From: Thermodesulfovibrionales bacterium | Lineage (GTDB): Bacteria; Nitrospirota; Thermodesulfovibrionia; Thermodesulfovibrionales; Dissulfurispiraceae | Direction: 5' to 3' | Length of the DNA: 64,000 bases | Assembly: GCA_020062545.1 (NCBI GenBank) | Contig: JAGUWD010000029.1 | Location: 15,672 to 79,671 of the forward strand | In this document: positions 35,963 to 63,656 of the stretch, one piece after another | Position numbering within the stretch: the first letter of the stretch is position 1 | Layout of the letters: each line of letters begins with the position of its first letter | Made by a program: the position numbers and the translations under genes | The notes under the pieces: model-generated | Seen by the model: only the letters and a program-made list of their open reading frames with translations | Database searches by the model: none | What the model was told of the DNA's origin: nothing

Positions 35963-35991
35963 TTGACAAAAGAGCAACTAATAATTAAAAT
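35963..35991 (+). promoter_or_regulatory. sigma-70-like promoter at the head of the cytochrome island
   Basis: TTGACA 35963-35968, 17-nt spacer, TAAAAT 35986-35991; RBS aggagggg before ATG 36037. Confidence 0.4.
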
Positions 35992-36036
35992 TTGACCAAA
36001 AATAATTTACAAAAAATTTACTTCAGGAGGGGCACC

Positions 36037-37416
36037 ATGGGGGACACAGAAGTCAGGAGGAGTGGAAGTCTTGCATTGGTCTTATTTTTATTAATCTCTG
36101 CTTTAATCTTTTCCATTTATCTATCAGAAAGTCACTCTATTGTAAACGCCCAGACCAAAGAGTCGTGCGTTACGGACAGGTGCCACAGCAAGATGGGAAA
36201 GGAGAAGTTTGTGCATGGCCCCGCAGCAGTGGGTGACTGTATGGCCTGCCATACAGGAGATGCAGCCAGACACAAATCATCGCCTTCCAGTTATAAATTC
36301 GCACCAATTAAGAATGTAGGAGAACAATGTTATAAATGTCATGACAGGGTAGATACAAAGAAAGAAGTTCACAAACCGGTCAAAGAAGGCAATTGCTCAA
36401 AATGCCACGATCCTCACCAATCTCCTTATAAATACCAGCTGCGTGGAGACGGACAGAACCTTTGCTTCATGTGCCATGACAAAAAGATTGCTGCCGGCAA
36501 ATTTGTCCATGGACCTGTTGCTGTTGGTGGATGCTCCATGTGCCACAACCCGCACCAGACAGATTTCCCCAAGATGCTGAATGCATCGGGAAATGATGTT
36601 TGCTTTATATGCCATACAGATAAGGCGGATGCATTCAAAGGAAAGAAGTTTAGCCATAAGCCTGTCCGGGAAAAGTGTACTAACTGTCACAGCCCTCATG
36701 CCGGCGACTATAAATACAATTTCAAGGCGGATGGCTCAAAGGACTTATGTCTGGGATGTCACAAGGATAAAAAAGAATGGATTGCCAATGTTAAAGTTAA
36801 ACACGGTGGTCTTGAAACAGACAAGAAATGTCTTGCATGTCATGACCCGCATGTCTCTGATTATGTGAAACAACTGGTAAAAGAACCCATGGATGTATGT
36901 ATGATGTGCCATGACAAGCCCCTTCAGGCCCCTGATAAAAAACTTCTCGATATGAAGACATATTTGGCTCAAAATAAAGACTGGCATGGTCCTATAAAGC
37001 AGAAGGATTGTTCGGCATGCCACAATACCCATGGTTCTGATAATTTCAGGATTCTCAGAAAATATTTTCCCCCTTTGTTTTATGCGCCATTTGACCCTAA
37101 AAATTACGAGCTATGCTTTAATTGTCACGAGAAGACGCTTGTACTTGATGCAAAAACTACAACACTGACAGGGTTCAGGAACGGTGACCAGAATCTCCAC
37201 TTTGTGCATGTCAATAAGGCGATTAAGGGACGTACATGCAGGGCGTGCCATGATGCACACTCAACCAATAATCCGAAACACATAAGGGATGCTGTGCCTT
37301 TCGGTGCATGGGGATTACCCGTGGGATTTCAGAAGACTGCAAACGGAGGCTCATGCCTGCCCGGGTGCCATCAGAAGTTCGAATACAACAGGATAAACCC
37401 GGTTAAAAACAGGTAA
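36037..37416 (+). CDS. multihaem cytochrome c, 13 CXXCH plus one CX4CH and one CX3CH
   Basis: Counted by eye: CMACH CYKCH CSKCH CFMCH CSMCH CFICH CTNCH CLGCH CLACH CMMCH CSACH CFNCH CRACH, plus CVTDRCH and CLPGCH; N-terminal TM/signal anchor. Confidence 0.9.
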   Translation: MGDTEVRRSGSLALVLFLLISALIFSIYLSESHSIVNAQTKESCVTDRCHSKMGKEKFVHGPAAVGDCMACHTGDAARHKSSPSSYKFAPIKNVGEQCYKCHDRVDTKKEVHKPVKEGNCSKCHDPHQSPYKYQLRGDGQNLCFMCHDKKIAAGKFVHGPVAVGGCSMCHNPHQTDFPKMLNASGNDVCFICHTDKADAFKGKKFSHKPVREKCTNCHSPHAGDYKYNFKADGSKDLCLGCHKDKKEWIANVKVKHGGLETDKKCLACHDPHVSDYVKQLVKEPMDVCMMCHDKPLQAPDKKLLDMKTYLAQNKDWHGPIKQKDCSACHNTHGSDNFRILRKYFPPLFYAPFDPKNYELCFNCHEKTLVLDAKTTTLTGFRNGDQNLHFVHVNKAIKGRTCRACHDAHSTNNPKHIRDAVPFGAWGLPVGFQKTANGGSCLPGCHQKFEYNRINPVKNR

Positions 37417-37421
37417 AGGCA

Positions 37422-37976
37422 ATGAAAAGACAGGAAAAAGAAGAGGTTAAGGTAGAGAAAGGCAAATTAAAGGAAAATATATTTCTGTTTCTCATTATAT
37501 TTTTCTTCTTTACCTTTACCTCTACCTTTACTTATGCCCAGGATAGGGAAAAGGCCGTCTCCCTCTATAAGGAGTCTGTCAAGTTTTTTGAAGACGGCAA
37601 TATAGATAAGGCAATAGAGACCATCAAAGAAGCGATTAATGCAGACCCGAATTACCCTGAAGCCTACGACCATTTAGGGTATATGTTTTTAAAAAAGGGG
37701 CAGCTTGACGAGGCGATCAATGCCTTTAACTCGGCACTGAAAATAAATCCGAGGATGCGGACTTCCAAAACAGGGATAGGCAGTGCGCTTATGAAAAAAG
37801 GGGATCTGAAAGGCGCTGAGTCTATCCTCAAAGAGGCATTGATACTCAATCCCTATCCTTCAATGACACATTATGTACTGGGACTTGTTTATGAAAAACT
37901 CGGTGACTATGAAAAGGCCATAATGCATTACAAGGAAGGCATAAAGACCTATAAGGTGAGGATAGGGAAGGAATGA
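37422..37976 (+). CDS. secreted TPR-repeat protein
   Basis: Signal peptide ...FTFTSTFTYAQ; three to four TPR units (A..Y...L..NP.. pattern). Confidence 0.75.
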   Translation: MKRQEKEEVKVEKGKLKENIFLFLIIFFFFTFTSTFTYAQDREKAVSLYKESVKFFEDGNIDKAIETIKEAINADPNYPEAYDHLGYMFLKKGQLDEAINAFNSALKINPRMRTSKTGIGSALMKKGDLKGAESILKEALILNPYPSMTHYVLGLVYEKLGDYEKAIMHYKEGIKTYKVRIGKE

Positions 37977-39082
37977 AGGCATCTTTTGAAAGAGAGAGAA
38001 TACTGATTGTACAGGCAATAGTATTTATTGCCTTAATTGCGGGCTCTTTTGTTTATACTGCTACTGCACAGGCATTGCTCCAGATAGGGGCTCAAGCTCC
38101 TGAATTTACGCTCAAGGATATAGATGGCAAGGACATAAGCCTTTCACAATATTCACAGAAAAAGGCGGTTGTGGTTCTGTTCTGGTCAACATGGAGCGCC
38201 AAGTCCCCCAATGCCCTTAAAAGATTTGAAGATTTTTATAAAAAATACAAAGACAGGGGAATACAGGTAATCGCAATCAACGCTGATAACCAGACGATTT
38301 CGAGCGAAGACATGGAAAAGATAAAAAAACTTGGTAAAGAACTTGATATTACATTTCCAATGCTTCTGGATAAGGGATTAAAAACGTTTCACGAGTATAG
38401 TGTTATAGCGCTCCCATCCACGATAATCTTATCCGAGGGAAAGATAACATATGAGCTGCCAGGATTGCCGCTTGTAGGCGCGGAGGACATGTTCGATTAT
38501 CTTCTTGTGCTGGCAGGCGAGCAGCCTAAGAAGAAGATGGAGCCCAGATACAAGCCACGGCATGATGCAATAGCAGATACAAACCTTGCAAGGGGATTTG
38601 TAAAGAGAAAAAAATACGATATGGCATATCCTCTGTTTAAGAAGGCGATAGAGAAAGATCCGAAGTATATGCTTCCTTATGTGGAGCTTGCAAGGCTCTA
38701 TGAGACGGAAGGGAAGAATCCGGAGGCTGAAGAGACCTTTAAGAACGCACTTAATGCAGAACCTGAAAATGTGGCGGTCATGAGTGAATTCGGTTATTTT
38801 CTTACAAAGCTCGGCAGGACAAAGGAAGCCATTGAAATCCTTGACAGGGCCGTGAAGAAAAATTCTTATACACCGGCTTATTATTATCATGCCTATGCCC
38901 TTGCAAAAAACGGACAGATTAAGGATTCTCTCGGTGCTTTTGAGGGTGCCCTCTCAATGAACCCATATGACCCAAAGCTATACTCTCTGAGGGGAGAAGT
39001 TTATGAGAACAGCAAGATGCTGAAAGAAGCGGCATCTGATTACAAAAAGGCTCTCGAACTTATTTTGAAGATAAAAGAATAG
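37973..39082 (+). CDS. thioredoxin-fold (TlpA/ResA-like) domain lacking both active-site Cys, fused to TPR repeats (paralogue 1)
   Basis: APEFTLKDIDGKDISLSQY..KAVVVLFWSTWSAKSP: the WCxxC position reads WSAKS; C-terminal TPR units. Confidence 0.75.
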   Translation: MKASFERERILIVQAIVFIALIAGSFVYTATAQALLQIGAQAPEFTLKDIDGKDISLSQYSQKKAVVVLFWSTWSAKSPNALKRFEDFYKKYKDRGIQVIAINADNQTISSEDMEKIKKLGKELDITFPMLLDKGLKTFHEYSVIALPSTIILSEGKITYELPGLPLVGAEDMFDYLLVLAGEQPKKKMEPRYKPRHDAIADTNLARGFVKRKKYDMAYPLFKKAIEKDPKYMLPYVELARLYETEGKNPEAEETFKNALNAEPENVAVMSEFGYFLTKLGRTKEAIEILDRAVKKNSYTPAYYYHAYALAKNGQIKDSLGAFEGALSMNPYDPKLYSLRGEVYENSKMLKEAASDYKKALELILKIKE

Positions 39083-39086: not shown

Positions 39087-40193
39087 GTGGAAGCCAAGAA
39101 AAAGGCAACGGCAAAGATTCTCCCCCTGCTGTTGCTACTTTTTTCAGTTTTTTACCTTGTTACTCTACCTGTTTCTGCACTGGCATTGCTCCAGACAGGG
39201 GCACAGGCCCCTGAGTTCGCGCTCAAGGATATAGATGGCAGGGATGTGAGTCTTTCACAATATTCGCAGAAAAAGGCGGTTATAGTTCTGTTCTGGTCCA
39301 CATGGAGCGCCAATTCTCCAAAGGCTGTGAAAAGATTCGAAGAGTTTCACAGAAAGTACAGGGACAGGGGGATACAGGTAATTGGAATAAATGCGGACAA
39401 CCAGACTATTTCTAAAGAAGATGTGGAAAATATAAAAAAATTTCTTAAGGAGATGGATGTCACTTTCCCTGTTATTTTAGACAAGGGATTGAAGACATTC
39501 CATGACTACGGGGTTATTGCACTGCCGTCTACTGTAGTTATATCTGAAGGCAAGATAACCTATGAGATGCCCGGACTTCCACTTGTAGGCACAGAGGATA
39601 TGTTTGATTATCTCTTTGTGCTGGCAGGCGAGACGCCTAAAAAGAAGATCGAACCCCGATATGTACCTCATCACGATGCAGTTGCTAATGCGAATCTTGC
39701 CATGAGATTTGTGAATAAAAAGATGTACGAGATGGCGTACCCTCTTTTCAGAAAGGCGATAGAAAAGGACCCGAAGTATATGCTTCCGTATGTGGAGATG
39801 GCTAAGCTTTATAATGTTGAGGGGAAACTTGTAGAGGCAGAGGAGACTTTAAGGAAGGCGCTGTCTGTAGAGCCTGACAATGTGGTCGTGACAGGCGAGC
39901 TTGGGTATATCCTGTCAAAAGCAGGTAAAATCAAAGATGCAATGTATATCCTTGAAAGGATTGTTAAGTTGAATTCACATGCGCCCATCTATTATTATTA
40001 TGCCTATGTACTTGCAAAAAATGGGCAGATGAAGGAATCGATGAATGCCTTTGACAAGGCGATTGCTCTTAATCCTTACGAGCCGATGATTTATTTATTG
40101 AGAGCCGAAGTTTATGAGAACAGCATGATGCTGAAAGAGGCGGCATCTGATTACAGGAAGGCTATCAAACTTATTTTAAAGATAAGAGAATAG
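39087..40193 (+). CDS. thioredoxin-fold domain lacking both active-site Cys, fused to TPR repeats (paralogue 2)
   Basis: Roughly 70 percent identical by eye to 37973-39082; the active-site position reads WSANS. Confidence 0.75.
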   Translation: MEAKKKATAKILPLLLLLFSVFYLVTLPVSALALLQTGAQAPEFALKDIDGRDVSLSQYSQKKAVIVLFWSTWSANSPKAVKRFEEFHRKYRDRGIQVIGINADNQTISKEDVENIKKFLKEMDVTFPVILDKGLKTFHDYGVIALPSTVVISEGKITYEMPGLPLVGTEDMFDYLFVLAGETPKKKIEPRYVPHHDAVANANLAMRFVNKKMYEMAYPLFRKAIEKDPKYMLPYVEMAKLYNVEGKLVEAEETLRKALSVEPDNVVVTGELGYILSKAGKIKDAMYILERIVKLNSHAPIYYYYAYVLAKNGQMKESMNAFDKAIALNPYEPMIYLLRAEVYENSMMLKEAASDYRKAIKLILKIRE

Positions 40194-41232: not shown

Positions 41233-42768
41233 ATGATGAAGCTATTCAAAAGTGTAAGGTTTAGACTGCTGATATTATCGCTCCTTGCTGTATTCGTCAT
41301 TACATCCATGGTAGTCCTGTCGGATGTGCTTGATACAAACGAGAGACTTATTGCAGCCCAGAAGGAAAAGTCCGTACTGCTGTCCGATACCATAAAACAG
41401 AGCATAATGCTTCTCATGCTCGAAAATAGATGGAAGGAGCTCCAGGTACTGATAGAAGATTTATCAAAAAACAATCCTGAATTAAAAGAAGTGAGGATAT
41501 TCCATCCGGTTTCGGGCCGTATTATTATATCCAACGAAACCGAGGATATAGGGAAGAGGATATATGAAAAGGACTGGAACAGATTTATAAAGCAGGAGGA
41601 GTCGCCTTTTGTGATAAAAAAACATGGCAGTATGTTTGCCACCCGCGTGTTACCGATTAAGAACATGCCACCCTGCTATAGGTGTCATCCACCCGAACAG
41701 AAAACACTGGGGGTCCTCGATGTTGAGATATCCCTTGCAGTTGCCCATGAATCCATAAAGGCATCGACATATAAACATATCACAGGACTTGTCGTCGGAT
41801 TTGTTGTAATAAGTATGATATTTCTTATCGGCGGAGAAAGACTTATTAACACTCCTCTGAGGGAATTAATAAATGTGATGAAAAAGGTGGAGTCAGGGGA
41901 TCTGTCGATCAGGATTAAAGAGATGAGAAATGACGAGTTCGGTTATCTATCTGGTGCATTCAATCATATGATTGATACCCTTGAGTCTGCAAAGAAGGAA
42001 ATAGAGAGATGCCACATGCAGCAGATGGAAAGGGCATCGAAGCTTGCATCCCTCGGAGAGATTATCTCCGGAATAGCCCATGAGATAAAGAACCCGCTGG
42101 CCGGCATAAGCTGTGCTATCCAGGTGTTTAATTCCGAACTAAGCGACGACGACAGCAGGAAGCCCGTTATTACCGAGGTTTTAAATCAGGTAAACAGGCT
42201 CGACAGAATAGTGAAGGACCTTTTGAGCTATGCAAAACCCAAGCCCCCCATGTTTGTGCCTTCGCGGATAAGCGAGATTTTAGAGAAGACCCTTTTCTTT
42301 GTGTATCCCGAGGCAAAAAAACAGAACATAGTTATCGACAATCAAGTCAGCAGCGAAATCCCTGAAATACTCATGGATCCCGACCAGGTACAGCAGGTGT
42401 TCCTGAATATAACCATAAATGCTATTCACGCAATGCCTAATGGCGGCATATTGACTATATCAGTATCAAAGAAAGACAGACAGGAAGTGCAGGATGAGAT
42501 AAAAAGGCTTGTACAGGATGATAAGTTTATAGCTGTTAATTTTCATGATACAGGCAAAGGCATATTACCGGAGGACTTAACTTACATATTCGAGCCGTTT
42601 TTTACAAAAAAGACCAAAGGCACAGGTCTTGGATTGTCTATAAGCCGTAAGATTATTCAGGAGCACGGCGGCGATATTACAGTGCGAAGCGAAGTTGGTA
42701 AGGGAAGCTTATTTACTGTATACTTACCGATAAAAAGTTCACAGCCTACGGTTCACGGTTCACAGTAA
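41233..42768 (+). CDS. sensor histidine kinase with a periplasmic CXXCH (haem c) domain, HAMP, HisKA, HATPase
   Basis: Two TM helices flank a roughly 150-aa loop containing PPCYRCHPPEQ; HAMP; H-box GIAHEIKNPLAGI; GTGLGLSISRKI. Confidence 0.88.
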   Translation: MMKLFKSVRFRLLILSLLAVFVITSMVVLSDVLDTNERLIAAQKEKSVLLSDTIKQSIMLLMLENRWKELQVLIEDLSKNNPELKEVRIFHPVSGRIIISNETEDIGKRIYEKDWNRFIKQEESPFVIKKHGSMFATRVLPIKNMPPCYRCHPPEQKTLGVLDVEISLAVAHESIKASTYKHITGLVVGFVVISMIFLIGGERLINTPLRELINVMKKVESGDLSIRIKEMRNDEFGYLSGAFNHMIDTLESAKKEIERCHMQQMERASKLASLGEIISGIAHEIKNPLAGISCAIQVFNSELSDDDSRKPVITEVLNQVNRLDRIVKDLLSYAKPKPPMFVPSRISEILEKTLFFVYPEAKKQNIVIDNQVSSEIPEILMDPDQVQQVFLNITINAIHAMPNGGILTISVSKKDRQEVQDEIKRLVQDDKFIAVNFHDTGKGILPEDLTYIFEPFFTKKTKGTGLGLSISRKIIQEHGGDITVRSEVGKGSLFTVYLPIKSSQPTVHGSQ

Positions 42769-42861: not shown

Positions 42862-44247
42862 TTGGTTCACGCAAAGATTCTTGTTGTAGATGATGAAAGG
42901 TTTATAACATGGTCTCTTAAGCAACACCTTGAGAAAGAGGGCTATGAAGTCTTCACTGCCGAATCGGGTGAAGAGGGGCTTGAGGTATTCAGGACAGAGC
43001 TGCCTGACATTATCCTCCTTGATATTCATCTCCCTGGAATAAGCGGTCTTGAAACCCTTGAAGCCATAAGGAAAATCAACAAGGAAGTCATTGTGGTTAT
43101 CATAACTGCCCATGGAGATATAGAGACAGCAGTTTCTGCTATAAAGTTAGGCGCATACGATTTTGTTGAAAAACCATTCGATCTGAACAGGATATCCGTT
43201 CTTATCAAAAAGGCGCTGGAAACGATAACCCTGAAAAGGGAAGTTACCTATCTAAGGGAAGAGCAATATGATAAGTATAGCTTTAACAACATAATAGGAC
43301 AATCCAAGTCCATGAAAGAGGTCATAGCCCTCGCAAAGAAAGTTGCAGAGAGCGATGCCAATATCATACTCATTCAGGGTGAGAGCGGTACAGGCAAGAA
43401 CCTCATAGCACGGGCCATCCATTACCACAGCGCAAGGGCATCCGAGCCCTTTGTCGAGGTTACGTCAACAGCCATCCCGGAGACGCTGATAGAGAGCGAG
43501 TTGTTTGGCTTCGAAAAGGGTGCATTCACAGATGCAAAGGCATCTAAAAAGGGGCTCTTCGAGCTTGCCAGCGGCGGCACGCTCTATCTCGATGAAATAG
43601 GAGATATCAAGCCTGCCACACAGGCAAAATTATTGAGGGTTATTGAGGATAAGACATTCAAGAGGGTAGGCGGGCTTAAGGATATAGTCGTGAATGTGAG
43701 GATTATCGCTGCCACAAATAAGAATCTCGAGAGTGCGGTTAAAGATGGCAGTTTCAGGGCTGATCTTTATTACAGGCTTAAGGTTATTCCCATATTCATA
43801 CCGCCGCTGAGGGAGAGGAAAGAGGATATAATCCCTCTCGCCATGCATTATATCAGGCTTTTCAACAGGGAGTTCAAAAAGAATGTAAAAGGCATATCTC
43901 CGGAGGCCGAAAAACTGCTTGTGAATTATCCGTGGTACGGCAACACGAGGGAGCTTAAGAATGTGATAGAGAGGATATGCATCCTTGAAGATACCGATGT
44001 CATATACCCGGAGCACATACCTTCGGAAATTGTCGATTATGTGGGTACTGCGGAGGTTTCTCCTGCAGAAGAGGAAAAGGCATCATTCAATATCCCTCCC
44101 GAGGGGCTTTCCCTCAAGAATGTGGAAAAGGATTTGATCGTAAAGGCCCTCCAGATGGTTAACGGCAACCAGACAAGGGCCGCAAGACTGCTTGGCATAT
44201 CGAGGGATGCGCTCAGGTATAAGATGCAGAAGTTCGGACTATTATAG
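42862..44247 (+). CDS. sigma-54-dependent response regulator (NtrC family: REC, AAA+, Fis-type HTH)
   Basis: ILVVDDE..D; GESGTGKN Walker A; GAFTDA (GAFTGA loop variant); C-terminal NQTRAARLLGISRDALRYKM; TTG start with RBS aaggagg. Confidence 0.92.
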   Translation: MVHAKILVVDDERFITWSLKQHLEKEGYEVFTAESGEEGLEVFRTELPDIILLDIHLPGISGLETLEAIRKINKEVIVVIITAHGDIETAVSAIKLGAYDFVEKPFDLNRISVLIKKALETITLKREVTYLREEQYDKYSFNNIIGQSKSMKEVIALAKKVAESDANIILIQGESGTGKNLIARAIHYHSARASEPFVEVTSTAIPETLIESELFGFEKGAFTDAKASKKGLFELASGGTLYLDEIGDIKPATQAKLLRVIEDKTFKRVGGLKDIVVNVRIIAATNKNLESAVKDGSFRADLYYRLKVIPIFIPPLRERKEDIIPLAMHYIRLFNREFKKNVKGISPEAEKLLVNYPWYGNTRELKNVIERICILEDTDVIYPEHIPSEIVDYVGTAEVSPAEEEKASFNIPPEGLSLKNVEKDLIVKALQMVNGNQTRAARLLGISRDALRYKMQKFGLL

Positions 44248-44595
44248 TTACTTCTTGTGGCACTGATTGCACAGAATTATTGTATCTAATCTTAACATCA
44301 TGGGGTCTTTTGAGTGCTGGTCATGGCATGTAATGCATGTGAGCTTCCCTTCTTTTGTCAGAGGAAGGTTTTTTGGTACGGGATATTTAGGGATTATATC
44401 GACTATATGTTCTCCTGCTTCTACCCTCTCCCGATGACAGGTGATGCACAGTTCGGTAAGAGGTTTTTTTACAGGCCCTCCGTTATGAGATATATGACAT
44501 GCTGTGCACTCTTTTGTCTGGAGTGCAGAAGTCTGATGAGATACCATCAGTGGTATAAAAATTGATAAAACAAAAATGTAAATAGTATGTTTCAT
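44248..44595 (-). CDS. small periplasmic tetrahaem cytochrome c
   Basis: CTACH CITCH CITCH CNQCH; signal peptide; its stop abuts the regulator stop. Confidence 0.85.
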   Translation of the reverse strand: MKHTIYIFVLSIFIPLMVSHQTSALQTKECTACHISHNGGPVKKPLTELCITCHRERVEAGEHIVDIIPKYPVPKNLPLTKEGKLTCITCHDQHSKDPMMLRLDTIILCNQCHKK

Positions 44596-44613
44596 AAGAT
44601 ATATAGACAAAAA

Positions 44614-45696
44614 ATGTTATTTACAAAAATCTTACCACAAAAAAAAGAACAGGTAAAGGTAAAGGGGAAAAAAATATTTTTTAACTGTCTATTATTGCTC
44701 TTTACCTCTACCTTTACCTTTACCTGTCTCTCTTGTGCTCCTAAAACAGAGCAAGTCGAATTATTCTGGCCGCAGCCGCCTGATGAGCCGAGGATTAAGT
44801 GGGTTGGATGGATAAGGGGAGAGAAGGATGTCGTTGGAGAAACAGGCAAGGAATGGCTGATGAGGTCAGTGGTTGGCGAGGGAACAGATGTTCTCCTTGC
44901 ACGGCCATACAGTGTCTTTGCTTCAAAAGGCAGGGTTTATGTGGCAGACACTGGGGGCTCGAAGATAGCAGTATACGATACGGTTAACAAAAAGGCGTAC
45001 TATATAGGTAAAAAGGCAGGTATCGGTGGTCTTAGTAAGCCAATCGGTGTGGTTGTTGATGGGGAAGGCAATATATACGTAACCGACTCATCACAGGACA
45101 GGGTAATAGTTTACAACCAGAACGGCGATTACAAATATACCCTTAATAAGAAAGGGCAATTTAAGCAGCCAACCGGAATAGCTATCAATGAATCCCTCGG
45201 TAGGATATATGTAGTTGATACACACAGACACAATGTAACTGCAATGAATAAAAATGGCGATATGCTTTTTGAATTCGGCAAAAGGGGAAGTAACGAGGGT
45301 GAATTTAATTATCCCAACAGTATTTATGTTGACAGGCGCGGATTGGTTTATGTCAGCGATACCCTGAACTTCAGAGTGCAGATATTCGATCCCGATGGAA
45401 AGTTTATCAGGCAGATAGGCTCCATAGGCGATACCCCCGGAAGACTTGCAAGGCCGAAAGGTGTAGCTGTAGACTCTGACGGAAATACATATATCGTGGA
45501 TGCTGCCTTTAATAATGTCCAGATATTCGACAGGGAAGGCACCTTACTGCTCTTCTTCAGCTCTATGGGCATAGGGCCGGGCAAATTATGGCTTCCGTCA
45601 GGAATCTTTATAGACGAAAAAGACACGATCTATATAGCAGACCAATTAAACAGACGGATAGATATATTCCAATACCTTCGCCATTTCCCTCACTAA
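44614..45696 (+). CDS. NHL-repeat six-bladed beta-propeller lipoprotein (paralogue 1)
   Basis: LSC lipobox; repeated ..P.G(I/V)A(V/I)D..G.IYV(A/T)D..N.R(V/I)Q(I/V)F.. blades; start may be ATG 44587. Confidence 0.85.
   Translation: MLFTKILPQKKEQVKVKGKKIFFNCLLLLFTSTFTFTCLSCAPKTEQVELFWPQPPDEPRIKWVGWIRGEKDVVGETGKEWLMRSVVGEGTDVLLARPYSVFASKGRVYVADTGGSKIAVYDTVNKKAYYIGKKAGIGGLSKPIGVVVDGEGNIYVTDSSQDRVIVYNQNGDYKYTLNKKGQFKQPTGIAINESLGRIYVVDTHRHNVTAMNKNGDMLFEFGKRGSNEGEFNYPNSIYVDRRGLVYVSDTLNFRVQIFDPDGKFIRQIGSIGDTPGRLARPKGVAVDSDGNTYIVDAAFNNVQIFDREGTLLLFFSSMGIGPGKLWLPSGIFIDEKDTIYIADQLNRRIDIFQYLRHFPH
44650..44726 (+). repeat. GGTAAA/TTTACC hexamer palindrome inside the NHL1 signal-peptide coding region
   Basis: caggtaaaggtaaagg (44650-44665) is the perfect inverted complement of cctttacctttacctg (44711-44726). 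Confidence 0.85.
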
Positions 45697-45928: not shown

Positions 45929-45944
45929 TGGCATGGGCTTTGCT
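45929..45944 (+). promoter_or_regulatory. sigma-54 (-24/-12) promoter
   Basis: TGGCAT-gggct-TTGCT, matching TGGCAC-N5-TTGCW; about 95 nt before ATG 46041. Confidence 0.7.
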
Positions 45945-46040
45945 TATAAATTGTCAAGAAGTTTGAAATAAATTTATAGGGGTGGAGATATTATGAAAAA
46001 CTTAACAATCTTTAAAACCAAAAAACGGGAGGTGAGTAAG

Positions 46041-46736
46041 ATGAAAGGAAAAATCTTAGTAGTAATGGTAGTAGCAATCGCACTTTTAGGTGCAGGTGTA
46101 GCATTGGCAGGCATTTCAGCCACAAAGCATAACCTGTCAGCAAGTGGTCCTGGCACAGTAAAGGCAAACGCAGGACAGCAGAACGATGAAATCTGTGTGT
46201 ACTGCCATACCCCGCACTTTGCCAACACAGGTTTTACAGGAGCACCGCTCTGGAATAAGGCAACTCCATCGGCCACTTATACTATGTATGGAACAACCAT
46301 AGCAGGTTCAACACCTGATGCGACACCGAACGGCATTACAAAGGCATGTCTTTCCTGCCATGATGGCGTAAGTGCACTCAACTCAATAGTCAACCAGGCA
46401 GGCTCAGGTGGAGTTACCGCTGGTGGATATAATGTGGCATTTGGTGCAACAGCAGCAGGAACAGCATTCACAATGCCCGCTGGCGCAACCAATATTGGAA
46501 CAAATTTAGCTGACGACCATCCAGTATCGATTACTTATACTGCTGGCAATGCAAGCCTTAAGGCAACATCAACGACACTTACAGGCTGGACAGGCGCTAC
46601 AACAATAGCAAATTTGCTCAGAAATGGAAAGGTTGAGTGTTCGAGCTGCCATGATCCGCACACAAGCACAAATGGCTTGTTCTTGAGGGTATCCAACTCT
46701 GGAAGCGCACTTTGCCTTGGCTGTCACGGGAAATAA
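46041..46736 (+). CDS. secreted tetrahaem cytochrome c, Thr/Gly/Ala-rich (small-cytochrome family member 1)
   Basis: CVYCH CLSCH CSSCH CLGCH; signal peptide ..GVALAG; RBS gggagg before ATG 46041. Confidence 0.88.
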   Translation: MKGKILVVMVVAIALLGAGVALAGISATKHNLSASGPGTVKANAGQQNDEICVYCHTPHFANTGFTGAPLWNKATPSATYTMYGTTIAGSTPDATPNGITKACLSCHDGVSALNSIVNQAGSGGVTAGGYNVAFGATAAGTAFTMPAGATNIGTNLADDHPVSITYTAGNASLKATSTTLTGWTGATTIANLLRNGKVECSSCHDPHTSTNGLFLRVSNSGSALCLGCHGK

Positions 46737-46886: not shown

Positions 46887-47069
46887 ATGGAAAAGACCAC
46901 AATATACTTGGATAAAGACATAAAGATGCATCTGCTCGAAATGGTTGCCGATATAAGCAAAAGACAGGGCAAGAGGGCTGCCATGTCTGATATAATACGC
47001 GATGCATTAAGAGAATACTTTGAAAGACAGGAACAGGAAAAGGTAAAGGAGGATGATAGGTATGAGTAA
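46887..47069 (+). CDS. ribbon-helix-helix (CopG/antitoxin-like) protein with no adjacent toxin
   Basis: MEKTTIYLDKDIKMHLLEMVA...DIIRDALREYF RHH pattern. Confidence 0.6.
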   Translation: MEKTTIYLDKDIKMHLLEMVADISKRQGKRAAMSDIIRDALREYFERQEQEKVKEDDRYE

Positions 47070-48156
47070 ACAGAAACAGATAAAGGTAAAGATGAAAAAA
47101 CTTTTAGAAAGATTTACCTTTTTACTGTTTTTCTTTGCCTTTACCTTAGCCTGTTTCTCCTGTGCTCCGCCTGCAGTTAAGGAAGTCAAGCTTATCTGGC
47201 CATCACCCCCTGAGGAACCGAAATTGGCATATGTGAACAGCTATAAAGGAGAAAGCGATTTTAAAAAGAAAGGTTTTTTTGAAGCTGTTCTGGGTGAGAC
47301 AATGTTCAGCACCGACCTCCAGAAGCCTTATGGCGTTACTGCTTATGGAGACAAGATGTATGTTACGGATACGCAGAGTGCGGTTGTATTTGTTTTTGAC
47401 CTGAAGGAGCAGAAAGTAACCTTTATGGGACATAAGGATATGGGCAAACTTGCCCTTCCAGCAGGCGTTGCTGTTTCATCTGACGGCATCATCTTTGTGT
47501 CAGATGCAAAACAGAAGAGGGTATTCGGTTATGATGCAAACGGCAATTTAAAGATAGCCCTCGGGAAAAAGGATGAATTTAAAAATCCCGGCGGTATTGC
47601 CATAAACAATGATATTGGAAGGCTATATGTAGTTGACAGTTACGGACACATGGTTCATGTTTACTCCACGAAGGGTGATCCACTTTTTACCTTTGGCAAA
47701 AGAGGGGACGGGGATGGGGAGTTCAATTATCCGTCCAATGTAGCTATCGAGAGAAAGACAGGCAATATCTATATAGTGGATACACAGAACTTCAGGGTAC
47801 AGGTTTTTGATAAGGACGGAAAATTTATAAAGAGATTCGGGCAGATCGGCGATGTGCCCGGCACTTTTACAAGGCCTAAAGGCATCGGCATTGACAGCGA
47901 AGGCCATATTTATGTGGCTGACGCTGCATTTGACAACCTCCAGATATTCGATGACAAGGGGCAGATACTTCTTTTCATTGGAGGCCCCGGACATGAGCCT
48001 GGATATTTCTGGCTTCCTGCAGGCGTGTATGTGGATGAAAAGGACAGGGTATATATCGTAGATTCTTTTAACCATAGAGTTCAGGTGCTCCAGTATCTGA
48101 GCGAAAAGTGGAAGAAGGAAAATCCTGAAAAATACAAAGAATACTTAATGAAATAA
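47062..48156 (+). CDS. NHL-repeat beta-propeller lipoprotein (paralogue 2)
   Basis: FSC lipobox; same blade pattern and WP.PPEEPK motif as paralogues 1 and 3; overlaps the RHH stop by 8 nt. Confidence 0.85.
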   Translation: MSKQKQIKVKMKKLLERFTFLLFFFAFTLACFSCAPPAVKEVKLIWPSPPEEPKLAYVNSYKGESDFKKKGFFEAVLGETMFSTDLQKPYGVTAYGDKMYVTDTQSAVVFVFDLKEQKVTFMGHKDMGKLALPAGVAVSSDGIIFVSDAKQKRVFGYDANGNLKIALGKKDEFKNPGGIAINNDIGRLYVVDSYGHMVHVYSTKGDPLFTFGKRGDGDGEFNYPSNVAIERKTGNIYIVDTQNFRVQVFDKDGKFIKRFGQIGDVPGTFTRPKGIGIDSEGHIYVADAAFDNLQIFDDKGQILLFIGGPGHEPGYFWLPAGVYVDEKDRVYIVDSFNHRVQVLQYLSEKWKKENPEKYKEYLMK

Positions 48157-50998: not shown

Positions 50999-52072
50999 AT
51001 GATGAGAAAAACAGTAATTGCAATAATAACATTGGTTTTGGTCATAACTACCTTAACCTATTCTTTTGCCATGGGACCAAAGATTGAAAAGAAAAAGGAG
51101 CACATAGTATGGCCGCCGCCGCCATGGGAGCCGAGGATAGAATTTCTGTACACCATTACAACACCAGATGACTTTGATATTAAAAAGGGCTTTTTCCGTC
51201 GCTTGTGGGAGTTTGTCGCCGGTGAGTCGAGGGAGGGTGTTGTAAAGCCATTTGGAGTCTTTGCAGATGACAGCGGCAGGGTATATGTTACAGATACTGC
51301 TGATCAGTCGGTGCATGTATTTGACCCAAAAGACAATAATTATTTTGTTGTCGAGGGAATAAACAAGAAGTCCCGCCTCACCTCACCCATCAGCGTGGCA
51401 ACAGACGCTGAAAGGAATATCTATGTGTCTGATTCGGTTATAAGAAGGGTGTACGTTTTTAATGAAAAAGGAAAATTTATCAGGGAGATAGGCTCAGGCA
51501 ATGCTATGCAGAGACCTACAGGTATTGCCATAGATAAGGCATCGGGAATCCTCTATGTCGTCGATACCCTTGCCAGCAAAATCTTTGTTTATAGCCTTGA
51601 CGGCAAACATATAAAGACCATTGGAGAGTACGGGGGTGGTAATGGCCAGTTCAATCGTCCAACCTTTATTGCAATCGGAAAGGATGGGAACCTGTACATC
51701 ACGGACACAATGAACGTGAGGGTGCAGATAATTGATAAAAACGGGAAATTTATCGGGAAGTTCGGTAAAAGAGGCGATGGAACAGGCGATCTGGCAAATC
51801 CGAGAGGAATTGCTCTCGACAGCGAAGGGCACATTTATATTACAGATACCATCCTTGAGGCAGTACAGATATTCGATAAGTCAGGACGGCTTCTCCTCGT
51901 ATTCGGCAGAAGAGGGACGAACAGCGGCGAATTTGCCTTGCCGGCAGGTATAAGCATTTCAAATGATGATAAAATATATGTAGCAGATTCTTATAACATG
52001 AGAATACAGGTATTCAGGTATCTAAAAACAGGCAGAGGTATAGGTAAAGGTGAGGATGGAAAAAGCAAATAA
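50999..52072 (+). CDS. NHL-repeat beta-propeller protein (paralogue 3)
   Basis: Signal peptide ..TLTYSFAMG; WPPPPWEPRI motif; six NHL-like blades. Confidence 0.85.
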   Translation: MMRKTVIAIITLVLVITTLTYSFAMGPKIEKKKEHIVWPPPPWEPRIEFLYTITTPDDFDIKKGFFRRLWEFVAGESREGVVKPFGVFADDSGRVYVTDTADQSVHVFDPKDNNYFVVEGINKKSRLTSPISVATDAERNIYVSDSVIRRVYVFNEKGKFIREIGSGNAMQRPTGIAIDKASGILYVVDTLASKIFVYSLDGKHIKTIGEYGGGNGQFNRPTFIAIGKDGNLYITDTMNVRVQIIDKNGKFIGKFGKRGDGTGDLANPRGIALDSEGHIYITDTILEAVQIFDKSGRLLLVFGRRGTNSGEFALPAGISISNDDKIYVADSYNMRIQVFRYLKTGRGIGKGEDGKSK

Positions 52073-52126: not shown

Positions 52127-52142
52127 TGGCACTAAATTTGCT
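52127..52142 (+). promoter_or_regulatory. sigma-54 (-24/-12) promoter
   Basis: TGGCAC-taaat-TTGCT, an exact match to the consensus; about 60 nt before ATG 52201. Confidence 0.75.
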
Positions 52143-54294: not shown

Positions 54295-54340
54295 AGAGTA
54301 AAAAGAGGACCGACTGCTTTTTGATTGATTTGCCCTCCAT

Positions 54341-54367: not shown

Positions 54368-54386
54368 AAAAACAGGAGGTTTTAAA

Positions 54387-57070: not shown

Positions 57071-58396
57071 ATAACAAAACCCAAATTTATCATATCCCTT
57101 ATAATCCTGACCCTCATTGCCACTTTTATAGGTGTGATAGTTCCACAGGTCAGTGATAAGAGTCCTTCTTATTTCAATGGATGGGAGCTCAAGTCGCCAA
57201 AGACATTTTATATCGTAAATCTACTCCAGCTTAACAGGGTTTACACATCCGTATGGTTTTTATTGCTTGTGTTTATTATCATGCTGTCTCTTGGATATTC
57301 ATTATATTCGCAGGTCAGGAGAAATCTGAAAAGAAGGGACTTCGTTCCATTATCGAGCCATTGGCCGGCTGCAGCCGATTGGGATTCTATAGATACCAAA
57401 ACCGTGATCGAACAGGAAAGCCTTATAAGATTTATGAGAGGACGGAGATATTTCCTGAAAAACGGGAGAGACGACGTTCTTGTATTCACAAAGAATTCTA
57501 TTAATAGATGGGGAGGCGTGATATTCCACTCCGGGTTGTTCTTGATAATTATTGCTGCGCTCGTTGGTCTTGCCTTTCAGGAGAGGGGATTTGTTCAGAT
57601 AATGGAAGGCGAGGTGTTTTCAGGAATGCACGATGATTTTCTTGTTAAGGATTTGGGTGTCTTTCAAGAGAGATTCGATGCGGGGTTTAAAACCCAGTTA
57701 TATAAGTTCTATCATGAATACTGGGAAACCGACCAGATAAAGGATATTTCGAGTTCTGTGAATATTATCGATAAGGATGGAAAGACTAAAGAGAAGACAA
57801 TAAATGTAAATAGTCCTCTCAAGTACAACGGTATAAATATTTACCAGTCCTTTGATTACGGCTATGCCCTCACATTTGCTTTGAAAAGACCTGATGGAAG
57901 CGAGACCGTTACCCATTTCCTCCTCGACCGTCCTGACAGAAAGACAAAGCCATTTGTGGGCAAAACCGACTTTCCTCAGACACCGTATATTTTTAGAATG
58001 AAATTTTATCCCGACATATCCATGAATTCTTTTCATTTGGGGAAACCAATTTTGTATCTGCAGGTGTTAAAAGGCATGAACAATCCGGTTTTTGAAGGGC
58101 TTGTTATTCCTGGAAATGTGATGAATATAGAAGACAATATCGTGCGATTCGTTAACATATCACACTGGAGCGGGCTCATTTATGTGAAAGGCGTTGATAT
58201 GACTATTGCATATATCGGCTTTTTTATAAGCTGCATAGGGGCATCGATAATATTCCTTTTGCCGCATAAGGAGATGTTTATCTCACAGAAGGGTTCTGTG
58301 TTATCATTATATGGAAGGACCAGCAGATACAAACCGCTTTTTGAAGAAGAAATGGAAGCAATTAAAAAGGAGATAAAAGAGAGATATGAACAGTGA
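57071..58396 (+). CDS. resB: System II cytochrome c biogenesis protein ResB/Ccs1; start uncertain (no canonical start before the first TM helix)
   Basis: KPKFIISLIILTLIATFIGVIVPQ is the family-typical first helix but lies upstream of the first canonical start (GTG 57134), in frame directly after the LuxE-like TAA; large periplasmic domain, C-terminal TM. Confidence 0.7.
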   Translation: MTKPKFIISLIILTLIATFIGVIVPQVSDKSPSYFNGWELKSPKTFYIVNLLQLNRVYTSVWFLLLVFIIMLSLGYSLYSQVRRNLKRRDFVPLSSHWPAAADWDSIDTKTVIEQESLIRFMRGRRYFLKNGRDDVLVFTKNSINRWGGVIFHSGLFLIIIAALVGLAFQERGFVQIMEGEVFSGMHDDFLVKDLGVFQERFDAGFKTQLYKFYHEYWETDQIKDISSSVNIIDKDGKTKEKTINVNSPLKYNGINIYQSFDYGYALTFALKRPDGSETVTHFLLDRPDRKTKPFVGKTDFPQTPYIFRMKFYPDISMNSFHLGKPILYLQVLKGMNNPVFEGLVIPGNVMNIEDNIVRFVNISHWSGLIYVKGVDMTIAYIGFFISCIGASIIFLLPHKEMFISQKGSVLSLYGRTSRYKPLFEEEMEAIKKEIKERYEQ

Positions 58397-59210
58397 ATTG
58401 CAGATAATCTTCAACTGGATAGCCATAGGATTTTATATTGTCTCGACGGTCTTCTTTGCCTACAGTGTATCATTCCAGAAGGAAAAGACATTGAAACCAG
58501 CAATATTATTGGCTTTGATCGGACTCATTCCCCATGCAATCGCTATTGCTATCAGATGGAAAATCACGGGGCATGGGCCGTATATGGCAAAGTATGAGGT
58601 TTTATCATCCAATGCATGGATAACCGTTTTATTGTTCATTATCGTTGCATGGAAAATACCGAGACTCAGACCTGCAGGCGTTATCGTAATGCCTCTGAGT
58701 TTTTTGATGATGGCCTTCGGGTTGTTTATGAGCCCCGAGATCAGGAGACTTCCGCCGTCTCTAAGGAGCATATGGCTTATAATCCATGTCACATTTAACA
58801 AGCTCGCAGCAGGTGCGATAATTATCGCCCTCGGAACATCGGTGCTTTATCTGCTTAAAGAGAAGCGGCACGACAGGGATTTTTATAAAAAACTTCCTTC
58901 CCTCGATGTCCTTGATGCCTACAGTTACAAGTTTATAGGCTTTGGGTTTATCTTCTGGAGCATAACAATAGCTGCAGGCGCTATATGGGCAAACGAGGCA
59001 TGGGGAAGATACTGGGGATGGGATCCTATAGAGACATGGTCGCTCATAACATGGCTTTTATACGGTTTATACCTTCATGCCCGATATTTCTTGAAATGGC
59101 AAGGAAGAAAGGCTGCATGGCTGATGGTAGTGTGCTTTGCGTTTTCGGTATTAACGATATTCATTATACCGTTTGTGGTTGAGTCGCTGCACTCGGAGTA
59201 CTTCAGGTAA
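58386..59210 (+). CDS. ccsA: System II cytochrome c biogenesis protein CcsA/ResC
   Basis: Trp-rich haem-handling motif WANEAWGRYWGWDPIETW; 8 TM pattern; overlaps the resB stop. Confidence 0.9.
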   Translation: MNSELQIIFNWIAIGFYIVSTVFFAYSVSFQKEKTLKPAILLALIGLIPHAIAIAIRWKITGHGPYMAKYEVLSSNAWITVLLFIIVAWKIPRLRPAGVIVMPLSFLMMAFGLFMSPEIRRLPPSLRSIWLIIHVTFNKLAAGAIIIALGTSVLYLLKEKRHDRDFYKKLPSLDVLDAYSYKFIGFGFIFWSITIAAGAIWANEAWGRYWGWDPIETWSLITWLLYGLYLHARYFLKWQGRKAAWLMVVCFAFSVLTIFIIPFVVESLHSEYFR

Positions 59211-59220
59211 AGAGGGTATT

Positions 59221-61618: not shown

Positions 61619-61634
61619 TGGAACGACTCTTGCT
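61619..61634 (+). promoter_or_regulatory. sigma-54 (-24/-12) promoter
   Basis: TGGAAC-gactc-TTGCT; about 78 nt before ATG 61712. Confidence 0.6.
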
Positions 61635-62525: not shown

Positions 62526-62532
62526 AGTTAAT

Positions 62533-62548
62533 GGGAATGATTTTTGCT
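62533..62548 (+). promoter_or_regulatory. sigma-54-like (-24/-12) promoter
   Basis: gGGAAT-gattt-TTGCT with correct GG-N10-GC spacing; about 36 nt before ATG 62584. Confidence 0.5.
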
Positions 62549-62583
62549 TATTCCAATAATCAGGATTGTGGAGGAGAGATGCA

Positions 62584-63279
62584 ATGGTGGTCAAAGGGAA
62601 AACAGTAATTTTATTTTCCATATTCTTACTTTTGCTCACAATAGCGATGGCTGCATATGGCGCAACCGTTGTCGGCTCTAAACATGATCTCAGCACTACA
62701 ACAACGCCTGAGCCATGTGCATTCTGCCACACGCCTCATTTTGCAAACGCTGCCAGCACCGCTGCTCCGCTATGGAACAGGAATATTACGAATATAAATG
62801 CCTTTACGATGTACACAAGCCCTACGATGAATACCTCTGTCCCTTCGCATCCGAACCCTATTTCCATATCATGTTTAACCTGTCATGATGATGCAGGTGC
62901 ATCCAGTGCGGTGAACAGCACAGATATGCACGATCTCAGAAATGGCCCCGGATCGGGATCGGTTCCTGATACTACATCATATCCTAACTGTAATAAATGC
63001 CATACATGGGGTGGTGGTGGAGGAGGAACATCCATATATTTCCCGATAGGTCCTAATTTGAGCGATGACCATCCGATCTCCATGACATATCCAACTGCAG
63101 CCCAGGATGCGGCTTTTAATATACCGCCTGACCTTCAGAATGGATGGAGTGATGTGAAGTTATTCAGTGGTAAAGTAGAATGCGCATCCTGCCACGACCC
63201 ACATGACCCTACGAGGGGGTCTTTTCTCAGAAAATCAAATTCAGGAAGTGCTTTGTGTTTAACATGTCATATAAAATGA
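62584..63279 (+). CDS. secreted pentahaem cytochrome c (small-cytochrome family member 3)
   Basis: CAFCH CLTCH CNKCH CASCH CLTCH; signal peptide ..AMAAYG; RBS ggaggag before ATG 62584. Confidence 0.88.
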   Translation: MVVKGKTVILFSIFLLLLTIAMAAYGATVVGSKHDLSTTTTPEPCAFCHTPHFANAASTAAPLWNRNITNINAFTMYTSPTMNTSVPSHPNPISISCLTCHDDAGASSAVNSTDMHDLRNGPGSGSVPDTTSYPNCNKCHTWGGGGGGTSIYFPIGPNLSDDHPISMTYPTAAQDAAFNIPPDLQNGWSDVKLFSGKVECASCHDPHDPTRGSFLRKSNSGSALCLTCHIK

Positions 63280-63287
63280 GGAAGGAC

Positions 63288-63656
63288 ATGAAAATATTGG
63301 TCGTAGACGATGAAGAGCTCATATGCTGGTCTCTGAAAAGGACCTTCGAAAAGCATGCTGGCCATTCGGTTTGCTGTGTCTATACAGGGAACGAAGCCAT
63401 TCAAAAGATCATGGAAAACCAGTACGATGTTGTAATTACCGATCTCAAGCTCCCTGATGTAAGCGGACATGAGCTTGTGAGAAAGATCAAGGAACTGGGC
63501 ATAGATACGCCTGTGATTGTCATTTCTTCTTATCTCTCCGAAGATATGTTAAATGATGTGATGAAACAGGGCGTTGTAAGGTGCATAAACAAACCATTCC
63601 AGATAGAGGACATCCTCAACGATGTGGAGCATATAACAGCTGCACTTAAGAGTTGA
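63288..63656 (+). CDS. single-domain response regulator (CheY-like receiver)
   Basis: MKILVVDDEE...DVVITDLKLPD...INKPF; an alternative ATG at 63276 overlaps the cytochrome stop. Confidence 0.85.
   Translation: MKILVVDDEELICWSLKRTFEKHAGHSVCCVYTGNEAIQKIMENQYDVVITDLKLPDVSGHELVRKIKELGIDTPVIVISSYLSEDMLNDVMKQGVVRCINKPFQIEDILNDVEHITAALKS

Follow-up and report, generated by a model that had tools for sequence, protein, structure and literature searches.

What does a 28 kb run of multihaem cytochrome genes build in a Thermodesulfovibrionales bacterium, and has such a cluster been seen before? The run lies at positions 35992-63656 of the window, that is, of the whole 64,000-nucleotide stretch of contig JAGUWD010000029.1 which was analysed here. 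The original prediction had regarded it as an uncharacterised module for the export, folding and possibly polymerisation of small cytochromes. Our analysis indicates that it is probably the form taken in Thermodesulfovibrionales (Nitrospirota) by a widespread cluster for extracellular electron transfer, known as uet or omcE, operating by the mechanism outlined further below. The proposed module function is in line with homology (OmcE, the barrel and their co-occurrence), but the implied novelty is not, and the label 'uncharacterised' has to be given up: the same cluster has already been described as uet (10.1101/2022.05.06.490989) and as the omcE nanowire cluster (10.1101/2025.10.22.684050). 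What is new is the equivalence of these two clusters, the OmcE-like domain of UetJ, the pairing of NHL subfamilies with cytochromes and an expanded haem motif.

Judged from alignments, the small cytochromes of the region are homologues of OmcE, a proven filament former in Geobacter and Desulfuromonas (PDB 7tfs, Wang et al. 2022; PDB 9yuq, 10.1101/2025.10.22.684050). In OmcE, as in OmcS, one haem is ligated by a histidine of the neighbouring subunit. The 247-residue tetrahaem cytochrome aligned over its full length with the OmcE filament proteins of G. sulfurreducens (7tfs, E=1.5e-27) and Desulfuromonas soudanensis (9yuq, E=4e-26); all four CXXCH motifs and all four distal histidines of both solved proteins are kept, and the mature protein has exactly eight histidines for its four haems. 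Both pentahaem proteins also matched OmcE in the PDB search, and they fit the '5-haem OmcE-like' class of Petersen et al. In the first of them, the distal histidine of the CHTPH motif is replaced (TPH to TWR, giving CHTWR), yet the protein has exactly ten histidines for five haems, which implies a rearranged ligand set. The 200-residue tetrahaem cytochrome lacks the N-terminal TKH histidine and ends in a Pro/Ala/Lys tail; it is kept in Dissulfurispira thermophila, a cultured relative.

The uet cluster was described in Ca. Tenderia electrophaga as uetABCDEFGHIJ-ccsAB-nrfG, and occurs also in Tenderiales and some Gallionella (10.1101/2022.05.06.490989; PMC9900912). It encodes a tetrahaem cytochrome (UetA), a peptidyl-prolyl isomerase (PPIase; UetB), a barrel (UetC), trihaem c7 cytochromes (UetD, UetE and UetG), a cupredoxin (UetF), NHL proteins (UetH and UetI) and an undecahaem cytochrome (UetJ); CcsA/CcsB and a TPR gene come next. 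For UetC, an independent prediction gave 28 strands and a pore of some 5 nm, and the system was proposed to mediate electron uptake in an aerobic electroautotroph (10.1101/2022.05.06.490989). The uet archetype, including three trihaem genes, was also present in a Thiohalomonadaceae locus of our collection (L010), whose gene at the UetA position matched the 247-residue cytochrome with E=1.7e-45. The region studied here shares with uet the order and strand of the genes for the tetrahaem cytochrome, the PPIase, the 28-strand barrel, the NHL protein, the undecahaem UetJ and CcsA/CcsB. No open reading frame (ORF) for a trihaem c7 cytochrome (UetD/E/G) or a cupredoxin (UetF) was found between the barrel and NHL3 or in the Pfam inventory of the window; MtrA-like 8- and 13-haem cytochromes replace them, as in Geobacter. 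Further differences are an extra NHL gene before the tetrahaem gene, a CX12CH motif in place of one UetJ CXXCH, a haem kinase, a sigma-54 activator and two pentahaem paralogues of its own, and an anaerobic Nitrospirota host instead of an aerobic electroautotroph. In uet, ccsAB and an NrfG-like TPR gene are adjacent; here ResB/CcsA are found downstream, and TPR proteins are present upstream, below the CcmH/CycH TPR cut-off.

The minimal omcE cluster consists of two multihaem cytochromes, two beta-propeller lipoproteins, OmcE and a large barrel, beside resB/ccsB (Petersen et al., 10.1101/2025.10.22.684050). The same authors reported OmcE homologues in five phyla, including Nitrospirota, and described the 5-haem OmcE-like class (10.1101/2025.10.22.684050). 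Shared with the present region are an OmcE with all haem ligands, propeller lipoproteins, two paired-CXXCH cytochromes and an adjacent resB/ccsA pair; the large barrel, which directly follows omcE in that cluster, is also present here. The Desulfuromonadia clusters differ in that they lack the PPIase and the UetJ-type fusion, in that many carry glycosylation genes, and in that their barrels, of 740-806 aa, exceed the present one in size and resemble it only weakly. Filament formation is proven in Desulfuromonadia and putative here. The uet paper makes no mention of OmcE (10.1101/2022.05.06.490989), nor the OmcE preprint of Uet (10.1101/2025.10.22.684050), and no paper linking the two was found in the searchable literature library. 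According to a preprint of 2026, peat Acidobacteriota express a 'porin-scaffold-cytochrome' cluster that includes an OmcE-like cytochrome.

With regard to gene order, 80 genome loci were fetched with an OmcE-family alignment as anchor, spanning Geobacter, Geothrix, Acidobacteriota, Gemmatimonadota, Planctomycetota, Ignavibacteria, Bacteroidota, Chlorobi, Elusimicrobia, Gammaproteobacteria, Nitrospirota and others. The locus of G. sulfurreducens was not among them; Geobacter sp. H2geo and G. argillaceus stood in for it. Relatives of the window proteins were identified with phmmer (E<1e-5), and the barrel with a hidden Markov model (HMM) iterated three times. A barrel was matched exactly once per locus in 59 of the 80; in 58 of these, it lay no more than 3 kb from an OmcE-family gene, and in 57 it was on the same strand. 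NHL proteins were found in 77 loci, cyt8-like proteins in 52, cyt13-like proteins in 44, the sigma-54 regulator in 19, CcsA in 18, the kinase and the PPIase in 17 each, ResB in 14, the redoxin-TPR proteins and the 184-residue TPR protein in 13 each, and the 200-residue cytochrome in only 4. The recurrent order was NHL – OmcE (4 haems) – [PPIase] – barrel – NHL – OmcE fusion with 10 or 11 haems, which was seen in many phyla, including the cultured Nitrosophilus alvini and the uet-type Thiohalomonadaceae locus; loci of the Geobacter type read ResB-CcsA-10haem-8haem-NHL-OmcE-barrel. On the chromosome of D. thermophila, the gene order is the same as here, minus LuxE and the small toxin-antitoxin-like genes. 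The core, comprising OmcE, NHL, barrel, UetJ and the paired-CXXCH cytochromes, is thus syntenic over more than 15 phyla, and the genes co-occur in relatives, a point on which the original prediction could have failed.

These counts also bear on whether the 28 kb is merely a chance neighbourhood of unrelated modules, a reading that we regard as very unlikely. It would account for the LuxE-like, B12-radical SAM, NTF2-like lipoprotein, GIY-YIG and RHH-PIN genes, which do not travel with the cluster, and for the repeat elements and small mobile-looking genes that interrupt the region. LuxE is absent from all 80 loci and even from D. thermophila, while the B12-radical SAM gene occurs in 2 of the 80 loci and the NTF2-like lipoprotein in 1, both being conserved only in the closest relatives. 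The core, in contrast, is syntenic, and the PPIase, the kinase with its sigma-54 regulator, ResB/CcsA and the redoxin-TPR proteins follow suit. A chance neighbourhood therefore describes only the bystander genes (LuxE, B12-radical SAM, GIY-YIG and the toxin-antitoxin pair) and is refuted for the core by synteny; of the parts originally listed as one module, the core travels together and LuxE and the B12-radical SAM enzyme do not.

Locus L063 (contig JBHHWA010000004.1), binned as a Thermoplasmata archaeon, holds a complete bacterial-type cluster with kinase, sigma-54 regulator, NHL, OmcE, outer-membrane barrel, NHL and 11-haem fusion; the contig is probably bacterial and wrongly binned.

The 579-residue ORF had no match in Pfam or NCBIfam. 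According to its AlphaFold2 model (21-sequence alignment, predicted local distance difference test (pLDDT) score 82.7), it is a large outer-membrane barrel, as the original prediction required: a signal-like helix precedes 28 antiparallel strands, and translation probably begins at M33. The best fold match in the PDB was MtrB (6r2q_B; E=1.7e-10, template modelling score 0.48, about 9% identity); next came TonB-dependent transporters, LptD and the FimD usher. The family is of modest size, with 259 proteins at E<=1e-3 in a profile search of 1.84 billion representatives. The ORF shares 100% identity with a protein from a Thermodesulfovibrionales metagenome-assembled genome and 87% with one from D. 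thermophila. Gammaproteobacterial UetC-type barrels aligned over the full length (hhalign 98.9%, E=1.2e-17), and the G. argillaceus barrel was reached with the iterated HMM (E=3e-12). Only profiles link these proteins, as pairwise BLAST failed against both the uet-type barrel (E=0.63) and the Geobacter barrel (E=0.015). The PPIase matched UetB of the Thiohalomonadaceae locus at the same position (E=1.3e-26), and wherever a PPIase gene was found in the loci, it lay directly upstream of the barrel gene.

With respect to MtrCAB (6r2q), the common features are a large barrel whose best fold match is MtrB and periplasmic cytochromes of the MtrA/DmsE kind; the differences are 26 versus 28 strands and the additional PPIase, NHL and OmcE-family parts of the present cluster. 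No MtrC/OmcA homologue was matched above noise among the proteins of the region. The osc (omcS-companion) cluster of G. sulfurreducens, the OmcS counterpart, was studied genetically by Shen et al. 2025 (Cell Chem Biol), as cited in PMC13194489, where OscH is assigned to folding (prolyl isomerase), OscE-G to secretion and OscD, a beta-propeller, to morphology. The functional logic is the same, namely a prolyl isomerase, channel-like outer-membrane parts and a propeller around a polymerising cytochrome, and the PPIase described here is a functional analogue of OscH. No OmcS-like hexahaem cytochrome was found in the region, and the UetJ profile met OmcS only at motif level (i-Evalues 0.17-0.73). 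Identity with PCC3 was rejected: that system has a conserved inner-membrane haem-b-like protein with five transmembrane segments and repetitive cytochromes of 21-34 haems (He et al. 2017), both of which would be required and neither of which is in the region.

The second OmcE-family component is the UetJ-type cytochrome. Its residues 20-254 form an OmcE-like N-domain (7tfs, E=8.6e-26), which is followed by an extension of about 440 residues, and the protein matched UetJ of the Thiohalomonadaceae locus with E=2.4e-47. The same architecture recurred among the loci, where 44 ORFs of 540-890 aa combine an OmcE domain with 10-11 CXXCH motifs, and the UetJ family profile matched OmcE (7tfs) over its first 214 positions with E=1.7e-56. 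Kinship of the UetJ family to OcwA, MtrA and OmcS was rejected, as the matches were strings of short haem motifs (i-Evalues 0.06-55). Most family members have CXXCH at the sixth position, while a Nitrospirota/Chlorobi subgroup keeps both cysteines and the histidine with an expanded spacer: CX12CH in the window (C312..C325-H326, 53134-53178) and in D. thermophila, CX7CH in L047, CX4CH in L049 and CX16CH in L061. Since both cysteines and the histidine are kept, the protein probably still binds 11 haems, and CX12CH is a possible non-canonical haem site. Non-canonical haem sites can need a dedicated lyase.

Persephonella hydrogeniphila (L083) has a full-length UetJ-like gene (698 aa) that follows the ribosomal-protein/rpoA operon and is flanked by no barrel, NHL or OmcE gene, so that the fusion protein can also occur outside the cluster.

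The three NHL propellers are 38-46% identical to each other. They had been expected to be three paralogous lipoproteins; the paralogy holds, and NHL1 and NHL2 have a cysteine after the hydrophobic region, but NHL3 has no cysteine and therefore cannot be a lipoprotein. NHL1 matched the NHL gene of the G. argillaceus omcE cluster (E=3.7e-58), and NHL3 matched UetI of the Thiohalomonadaceae locus (E=5.5e-72). Among the loci, propellers of the NHL3 type lay directly upstream of the UetJ-type fusion gene in 25 of 41 cases, and 44 of 97 propellers of the NHL1/2 type preceded a small OmcE gene. A 60-residue RHH/CopG-like ORF (46887-47069) was observed upstream of NHL2, overlapping its annotated start, and D. 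thermophila has a 61-residue gene in the same place. Translation of NHL2 probably begins at the ATG at 47062.

The larger cytochromes are likely periplasmic carriers. The 13-haem protein, likely an MtrA/DmsE-like paired-CXXCH electron carrier, has, beside its 13 CXXCH motifs, a CX4CH at residue 59 and a CX3CH at residue 455, and may thus bind up to 15 haems; it scored 127 bits against the DmsE family TIGR03508, below the cut-off of 192, and cyt8 resembles the DmsE/MtrA family, again below cut-off. Both have counterparts in the G. argillaceus omcE cluster (L005), in its 10-haem gene (E=1.4e-51) and its 8-haem gene (E=4e-50), respectively. The small c3-like gene is on the minus strand in D. thermophila too (L001 4598-5027).

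It is highly improbable that these cytochromes constitute a periplasmic respiratory or detoxifying multihaem reductase of the nitrite, hydroxylamine, sulfite or tetrathionate type, accompanied by its maturation genes and devoid of an extracellular role. The large number of multihaem cytochromes and the presence of a System II maturation pair of their own would suit such an enzyme, and one source annotates a relative (P0333) as 'nitrite reductase cytochrome c552 subunit'. However, no cytochrome of the region reached the curated cut-off of a catalytic family (NrfA, NrfH, NrfB, HmcA and TmcA models), matches being confined to motif level, and no CXXCK motif was found in any of them; NrfA entries in the PDB matched short stretches only (E=1e-3 to 1e-4), and neither an HAO/octahaem nor an MccA family scored above its cut-off. 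Catalytic enzymes, which would have overturned the original prediction, were thus not recognised, and the 28-strand barrel and the OmcE homology point to the cell surface instead.

ResB and CcsA lie 2.8 kb downstream of the UetJ-like gene. They adjoin uet and omcE clusters in the literature and in five of our loci (L002, L003, L005, L010 and L082), and CcsA matched its counterpart in L005 with E=2.7e-47. The exported 184-residue TPR protein showed a weak match to CcmH/CycH TPR (37.6 bits versus a cut-off of 42). For the first Cys-less AhpC/TSA+TPR protein, we propose a role as an apocytochrome helper or holdase rather than a redox enzyme.

The cluster also appears to be equipped with its own regulation. 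Orthologues of the haem-bearing kinase adjoin the clusters of L001, L047 and L055, and in other Nitrospirota as well as Acidobacteriota, the cluster is bordered by haem-bearing kinases together with sigma-54 activators. Of the four -24/-12 promoters originally proposed, three are good (9-10 of 11 consensus positions), but the fourth is weak. Across the whole window, the motif is not enriched above chance (6 found versus 3.8 expected), so that only position and conservation lend weight to individual motifs. The good ones sit 49-78 bp upstream of OmcE-family genes only, and two are conserved in D. thermophila: the counterpart of TGGCATGGGCTTTGCT is TGGCATAAGGTTTGCA, and TGGCACTAAATTTGCT recurs as an identical 16-mer.

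From the observed parts list, homology, synteny and promoter placement, we infer the following mechanism, in which polymerisation, the role of the barrel (channel, anchor or conduit) and the parts played as partners by the NHL, PPIase and redoxin-TPR proteins are conditional. The periplasmic haem-c kinase and its NtrC-type partner would switch on the sigma-54 promoters before the OmcE-family genes. ResB and CcsA would attach haem, and the Cys-less redoxin-TPR and TPR proteins may hold apocytochromes. The MtrA-like cyt13, cyt8 and the small c3 would carry electrons over the periplasm, while the SurA-like PPIase would escort cytochrome or barrel clients and the 28-strand barrel would serve as outer-membrane passage and anchor. 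The OmcE/UetA-type subunit would be exported through or at the barrel and would polymerise in the manner of OmcE, a histidine of one subunit ligating a haem of the next. The UetJ-type undecahaem cytochrome may join the same haem chain via its OmcE-like N-domain, as base, tip or barrel-embedded segment, and each OmcE-family cytochrome would have its own NHL propeller partner as scaffold or chaperone. The two pentahaem paralogues may be alternative or branch subunits. The direction of electron flow, whether export to minerals or partners or uptake, is not readable from the sequence.

Several observations weigh against this mechanism. A monomeric bis-His tetrahaem cytochrome would equally need eight histidines, and polymerisation of this OmcE homologue is compatible with its sequence but not proven by it. 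The barrel aligned only weakly with the Geobacter omcE-cluster barrels (hhalign 85.6%, N-terminal 200 residues only), and the AlphaFold2 model of the UetJ-like protein was unusable (mean pLDDT 46, 26-sequence alignment). The roles given to the NHL, PPIase and redoxin-TPR proteins are based on gene context. The host is kin to a sulfur disproportionator, a physiology that offers no direct reason for nanowires, and the uet authors favour a porin-cytochrome conduit over a secretion channel (10.1101/2022.05.06.490989). Such a static conduit, as in the original Uet model, would hold the UetJ-like protein, cyt13 or cyt8 inside the barrel as MtrA is held in MtrB; the OmcE-like and UetJ-like proteins would be monomeric surface cytochromes that do not polymerise, and the PPIase and NHL proteins would help in assembly only. 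The fold match of the barrel to MtrB and the resemblance of cyt13 and cyt8, below cut-off, to the DmsE/MtrA family speak for it; the model has also been put forward for the Acidobacteriota 'porin-scaffold-cytochrome' cluster, and the case for polymerisation here draws on homology. We nevertheless consider the conduit rather unlikely. The tetrahaem subunit is a full-length homologue of two solved OmcE filaments with all ligands kept and no spare histidine, filament-forming Desulfuromonadia share the barrel-plus-propeller context, and several OmcE-family paralogues with promoters of their own suit structural subunits better than a fixed 1:1:1 complex. The uet/omcE reading with a polymerising subunit is accordingly the one retained here.

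The coordinates of all features are given in Table 1. The region is a same-strand gene run except for one small minus-strand gene, and its right border is real, as convergent ABC/RND genes come next in the source contigs. All parts named in the original prediction were recovered at the coordinates given there. The recount agreed exactly with its eight multihaem genes and 53 CXXCH motifs (13, 8, 4, 10, 4, 5 and 5 in the plus-strand genes in order, 4 in the minus-strand gene), to which the sensor kinase adds one more. The SurA-like PPIase followed by the 579-residue ORF ending ..SRPF, the two thioredoxin-fold/TPR proteins devoid of cysteine (AhpC/TSA+TPR by Pfam), and the haem-c kinase with its NtrC-type activator were all in place, and Pfam identified ResB, CcsA, LuxE and B12-radical SAM, besides an RHH-PIN pair, a GIY-YIG gene and a receiver domain. 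Signal peptides had been predicted for all multihaem proteins; by a crude hydropathy check, an N-terminal hydrophobic segment was found in every cytochrome, NHL protein, PPIase, barrel and TPR protein. A compositional island was rejected: G+C content is flat over the whole window, so that 'island' is a descriptive term only and no mark of recent transfer.

Table 1. Features of the cytochrome region, in window coordinates
Feature	Position	Strand	Basis or remark
Multihaem cytochrome cyt13, 474 aa	35992..37416	+	13 CXXCH; Paired_CXXCH_1 2e-69
Exported TPR protein, 184 aa, no Cys	37422..37976	+	TPR families
Cys-less AhpC/TSA (thioredoxin-fold) + TPR protein 1	37973..39082	+	0 Cys; AhpC-TSA 7e-25
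Cys-less AhpC/TSA + TPR protein 2, paralogue of protein 1	39087..40193	+	0 Cys
Octahaem paired-CXXCH cytochrome cyt8, 330 aa	40240..41232	+	8 CXXCH
Sensor histidine kinase, HAMP-HisKA-HATPase	41233..42768	+	One periplasmic CXXCH, residue 148, between first transmembrane segment and HAMP
NtrC-type sigma-54 activator (REC, AAA+, Fis HTH)	42862..44247	+	Sigma54_activat 5.5e-68
Small tetrahaem c3-like cytochrome, 115 aa	44248..44595	-	4 CXXCH; eighth multihaem gene
NHL beta-propeller 1, probable lipoprotein	44587..45696	+	Pfam, hydropathy; Cys after hydrophobic region
-24/-12 promoter TGGCATGGGCTTTGCT	45929..45944	+	49 bp upstream of OmcE-like gene
OmcE/UetA-type tetrahaem cytochrome, 247 aa (mature ~208 aa), candidate filament subunit	45993..46736	+	4 CXXCH
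NHL beta-propeller 2, probable lipoprotein	47053..48156	+	Pfam, hydropathy; Cys after hydrophobic region
SurA_N + parvulin PPIase (UetB-like)	48162..49106	+	Pfam
Outer-membrane beta-barrel, 579 aa, ends ..SRPF, UetC family	49143..50882	+	AlphaFold2, hhalign
NHL beta-propeller 3, UetI-like, no Cys	50999..52072	+	Pfam, hydropathy
-24/-12 promoter TGGCACTAAATTTGCT	52127..52142	+	59 bp upstream of UetJ-like gene
UetJ-type cytochrome, 697 aa	52201..54294	+	10 CXXCH + CX12CH
RHH-PIN toxin-antitoxin pair	54321-55075		Between UetJ-like gene and 200-aa cytochrome
Tetrahaem cytochrome, 200 aa	55121..55723	+	OmcE-like C-terminal half; 4 CXXCH
LuxE-like acyl-protein synthetase, NTF2-like lipoprotein, B12-radical SAM	55788-57053 and 59536-61505		LuxE and B12-radical SAM by Pfam
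ResB (CcsB) + CcsA, System II cytochrome c maturation pair	57134..59210	+	Pfam
-24/-12 promoter TGGAACGACTCTTGCT	61619..61634	+	78 bp upstream of first pentahaem OmcE paralogue
Pentahaem OmcE-like paralogue 1, 224 aa	61712..62386	+	5 CXXCH; 7tfs E=3.5e-18
Weak -24/-12 match	62533-62548		7/11 consensus positions; before second pentahaem gene
Pentahaem OmcE-like paralogue 2	62566..63279	+	5 CXXCH; called 231 aa from 62584 in public assemblies
Stand-alone receiver-domain response regulator	63255..63656	+	Last gene of the region

Two kinds of small elements were observed within the run. At the spot of the RHH-PIN pair and at a neighbouring one, D. thermophila has other small toxin-antitoxin-like pairs (DUF4258/DUF2283 and RHH/PIN; L001 15594-16054 and 16857-17545), and this position appears to be an insertion hot spot. 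An 11-nucleotide core, GTCATTGCGAG, is present in 5 copies versus 0.77 expected (45799-45879, 52203-52213, 59221-59231 and 59555-59565). Four copies form two inverted pairs, one around the GIY-YIG gene (59219-59539) and the other immediately before the sigma-54 promoter that precedes the OmcE-like gene; a single copy overlaps the start codon (ATG) of the UetJ-like gene. The element looks like a small GIY-YIG-associated mobile repeat. As the N-termini 'MSLRGAAATKQS', 'MSLRGVAEAIF' and 'MRLLRFARNDRK' are translations of the repeat, the start codons of the ORFs at 52201, 59219 and 59536 are doubtful.

The finding places a complete OmcE/Uet-type module in Thermodesulfovibrionales, and the comparison joins two literatures without mutual citation in the searchable library. 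As the barrel, the NHL proteins and the UetJ-type fusion occur together over more than 15 phyla, the list of candidates for filament secretion, anchoring and capping becomes shorter. A near-identical copy of the cluster in the cultured, genome-closed D. thermophila makes nanowire formation testable outside Desulfuromonadia, in a thermophile. We tentatively suggest, as a possibility that goes beyond the identification of the cluster, that a single ancient system underlies both the uet 'conduit' and the omcE 'nanowire'. In its full form, outside Desulfuromonadia, the UetJ-type undecahaem cytochrome would be a dedicated second filament component, co-assembling through its OmcE-like N-domain with the OmcE/UetA polymer by trans-histidine ligation, as a base threaded in the barrel or as a reactive tip, and each cytochrome type would have its own NHL subfamily. 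If this is true, it would answer the question of Petersen et al. as to what initiates, terminates or tips OmcE filaments, and the cathode-oxidising Tenderia and some iron oxidisers would take up electrons via nanowires of the OmcE type.

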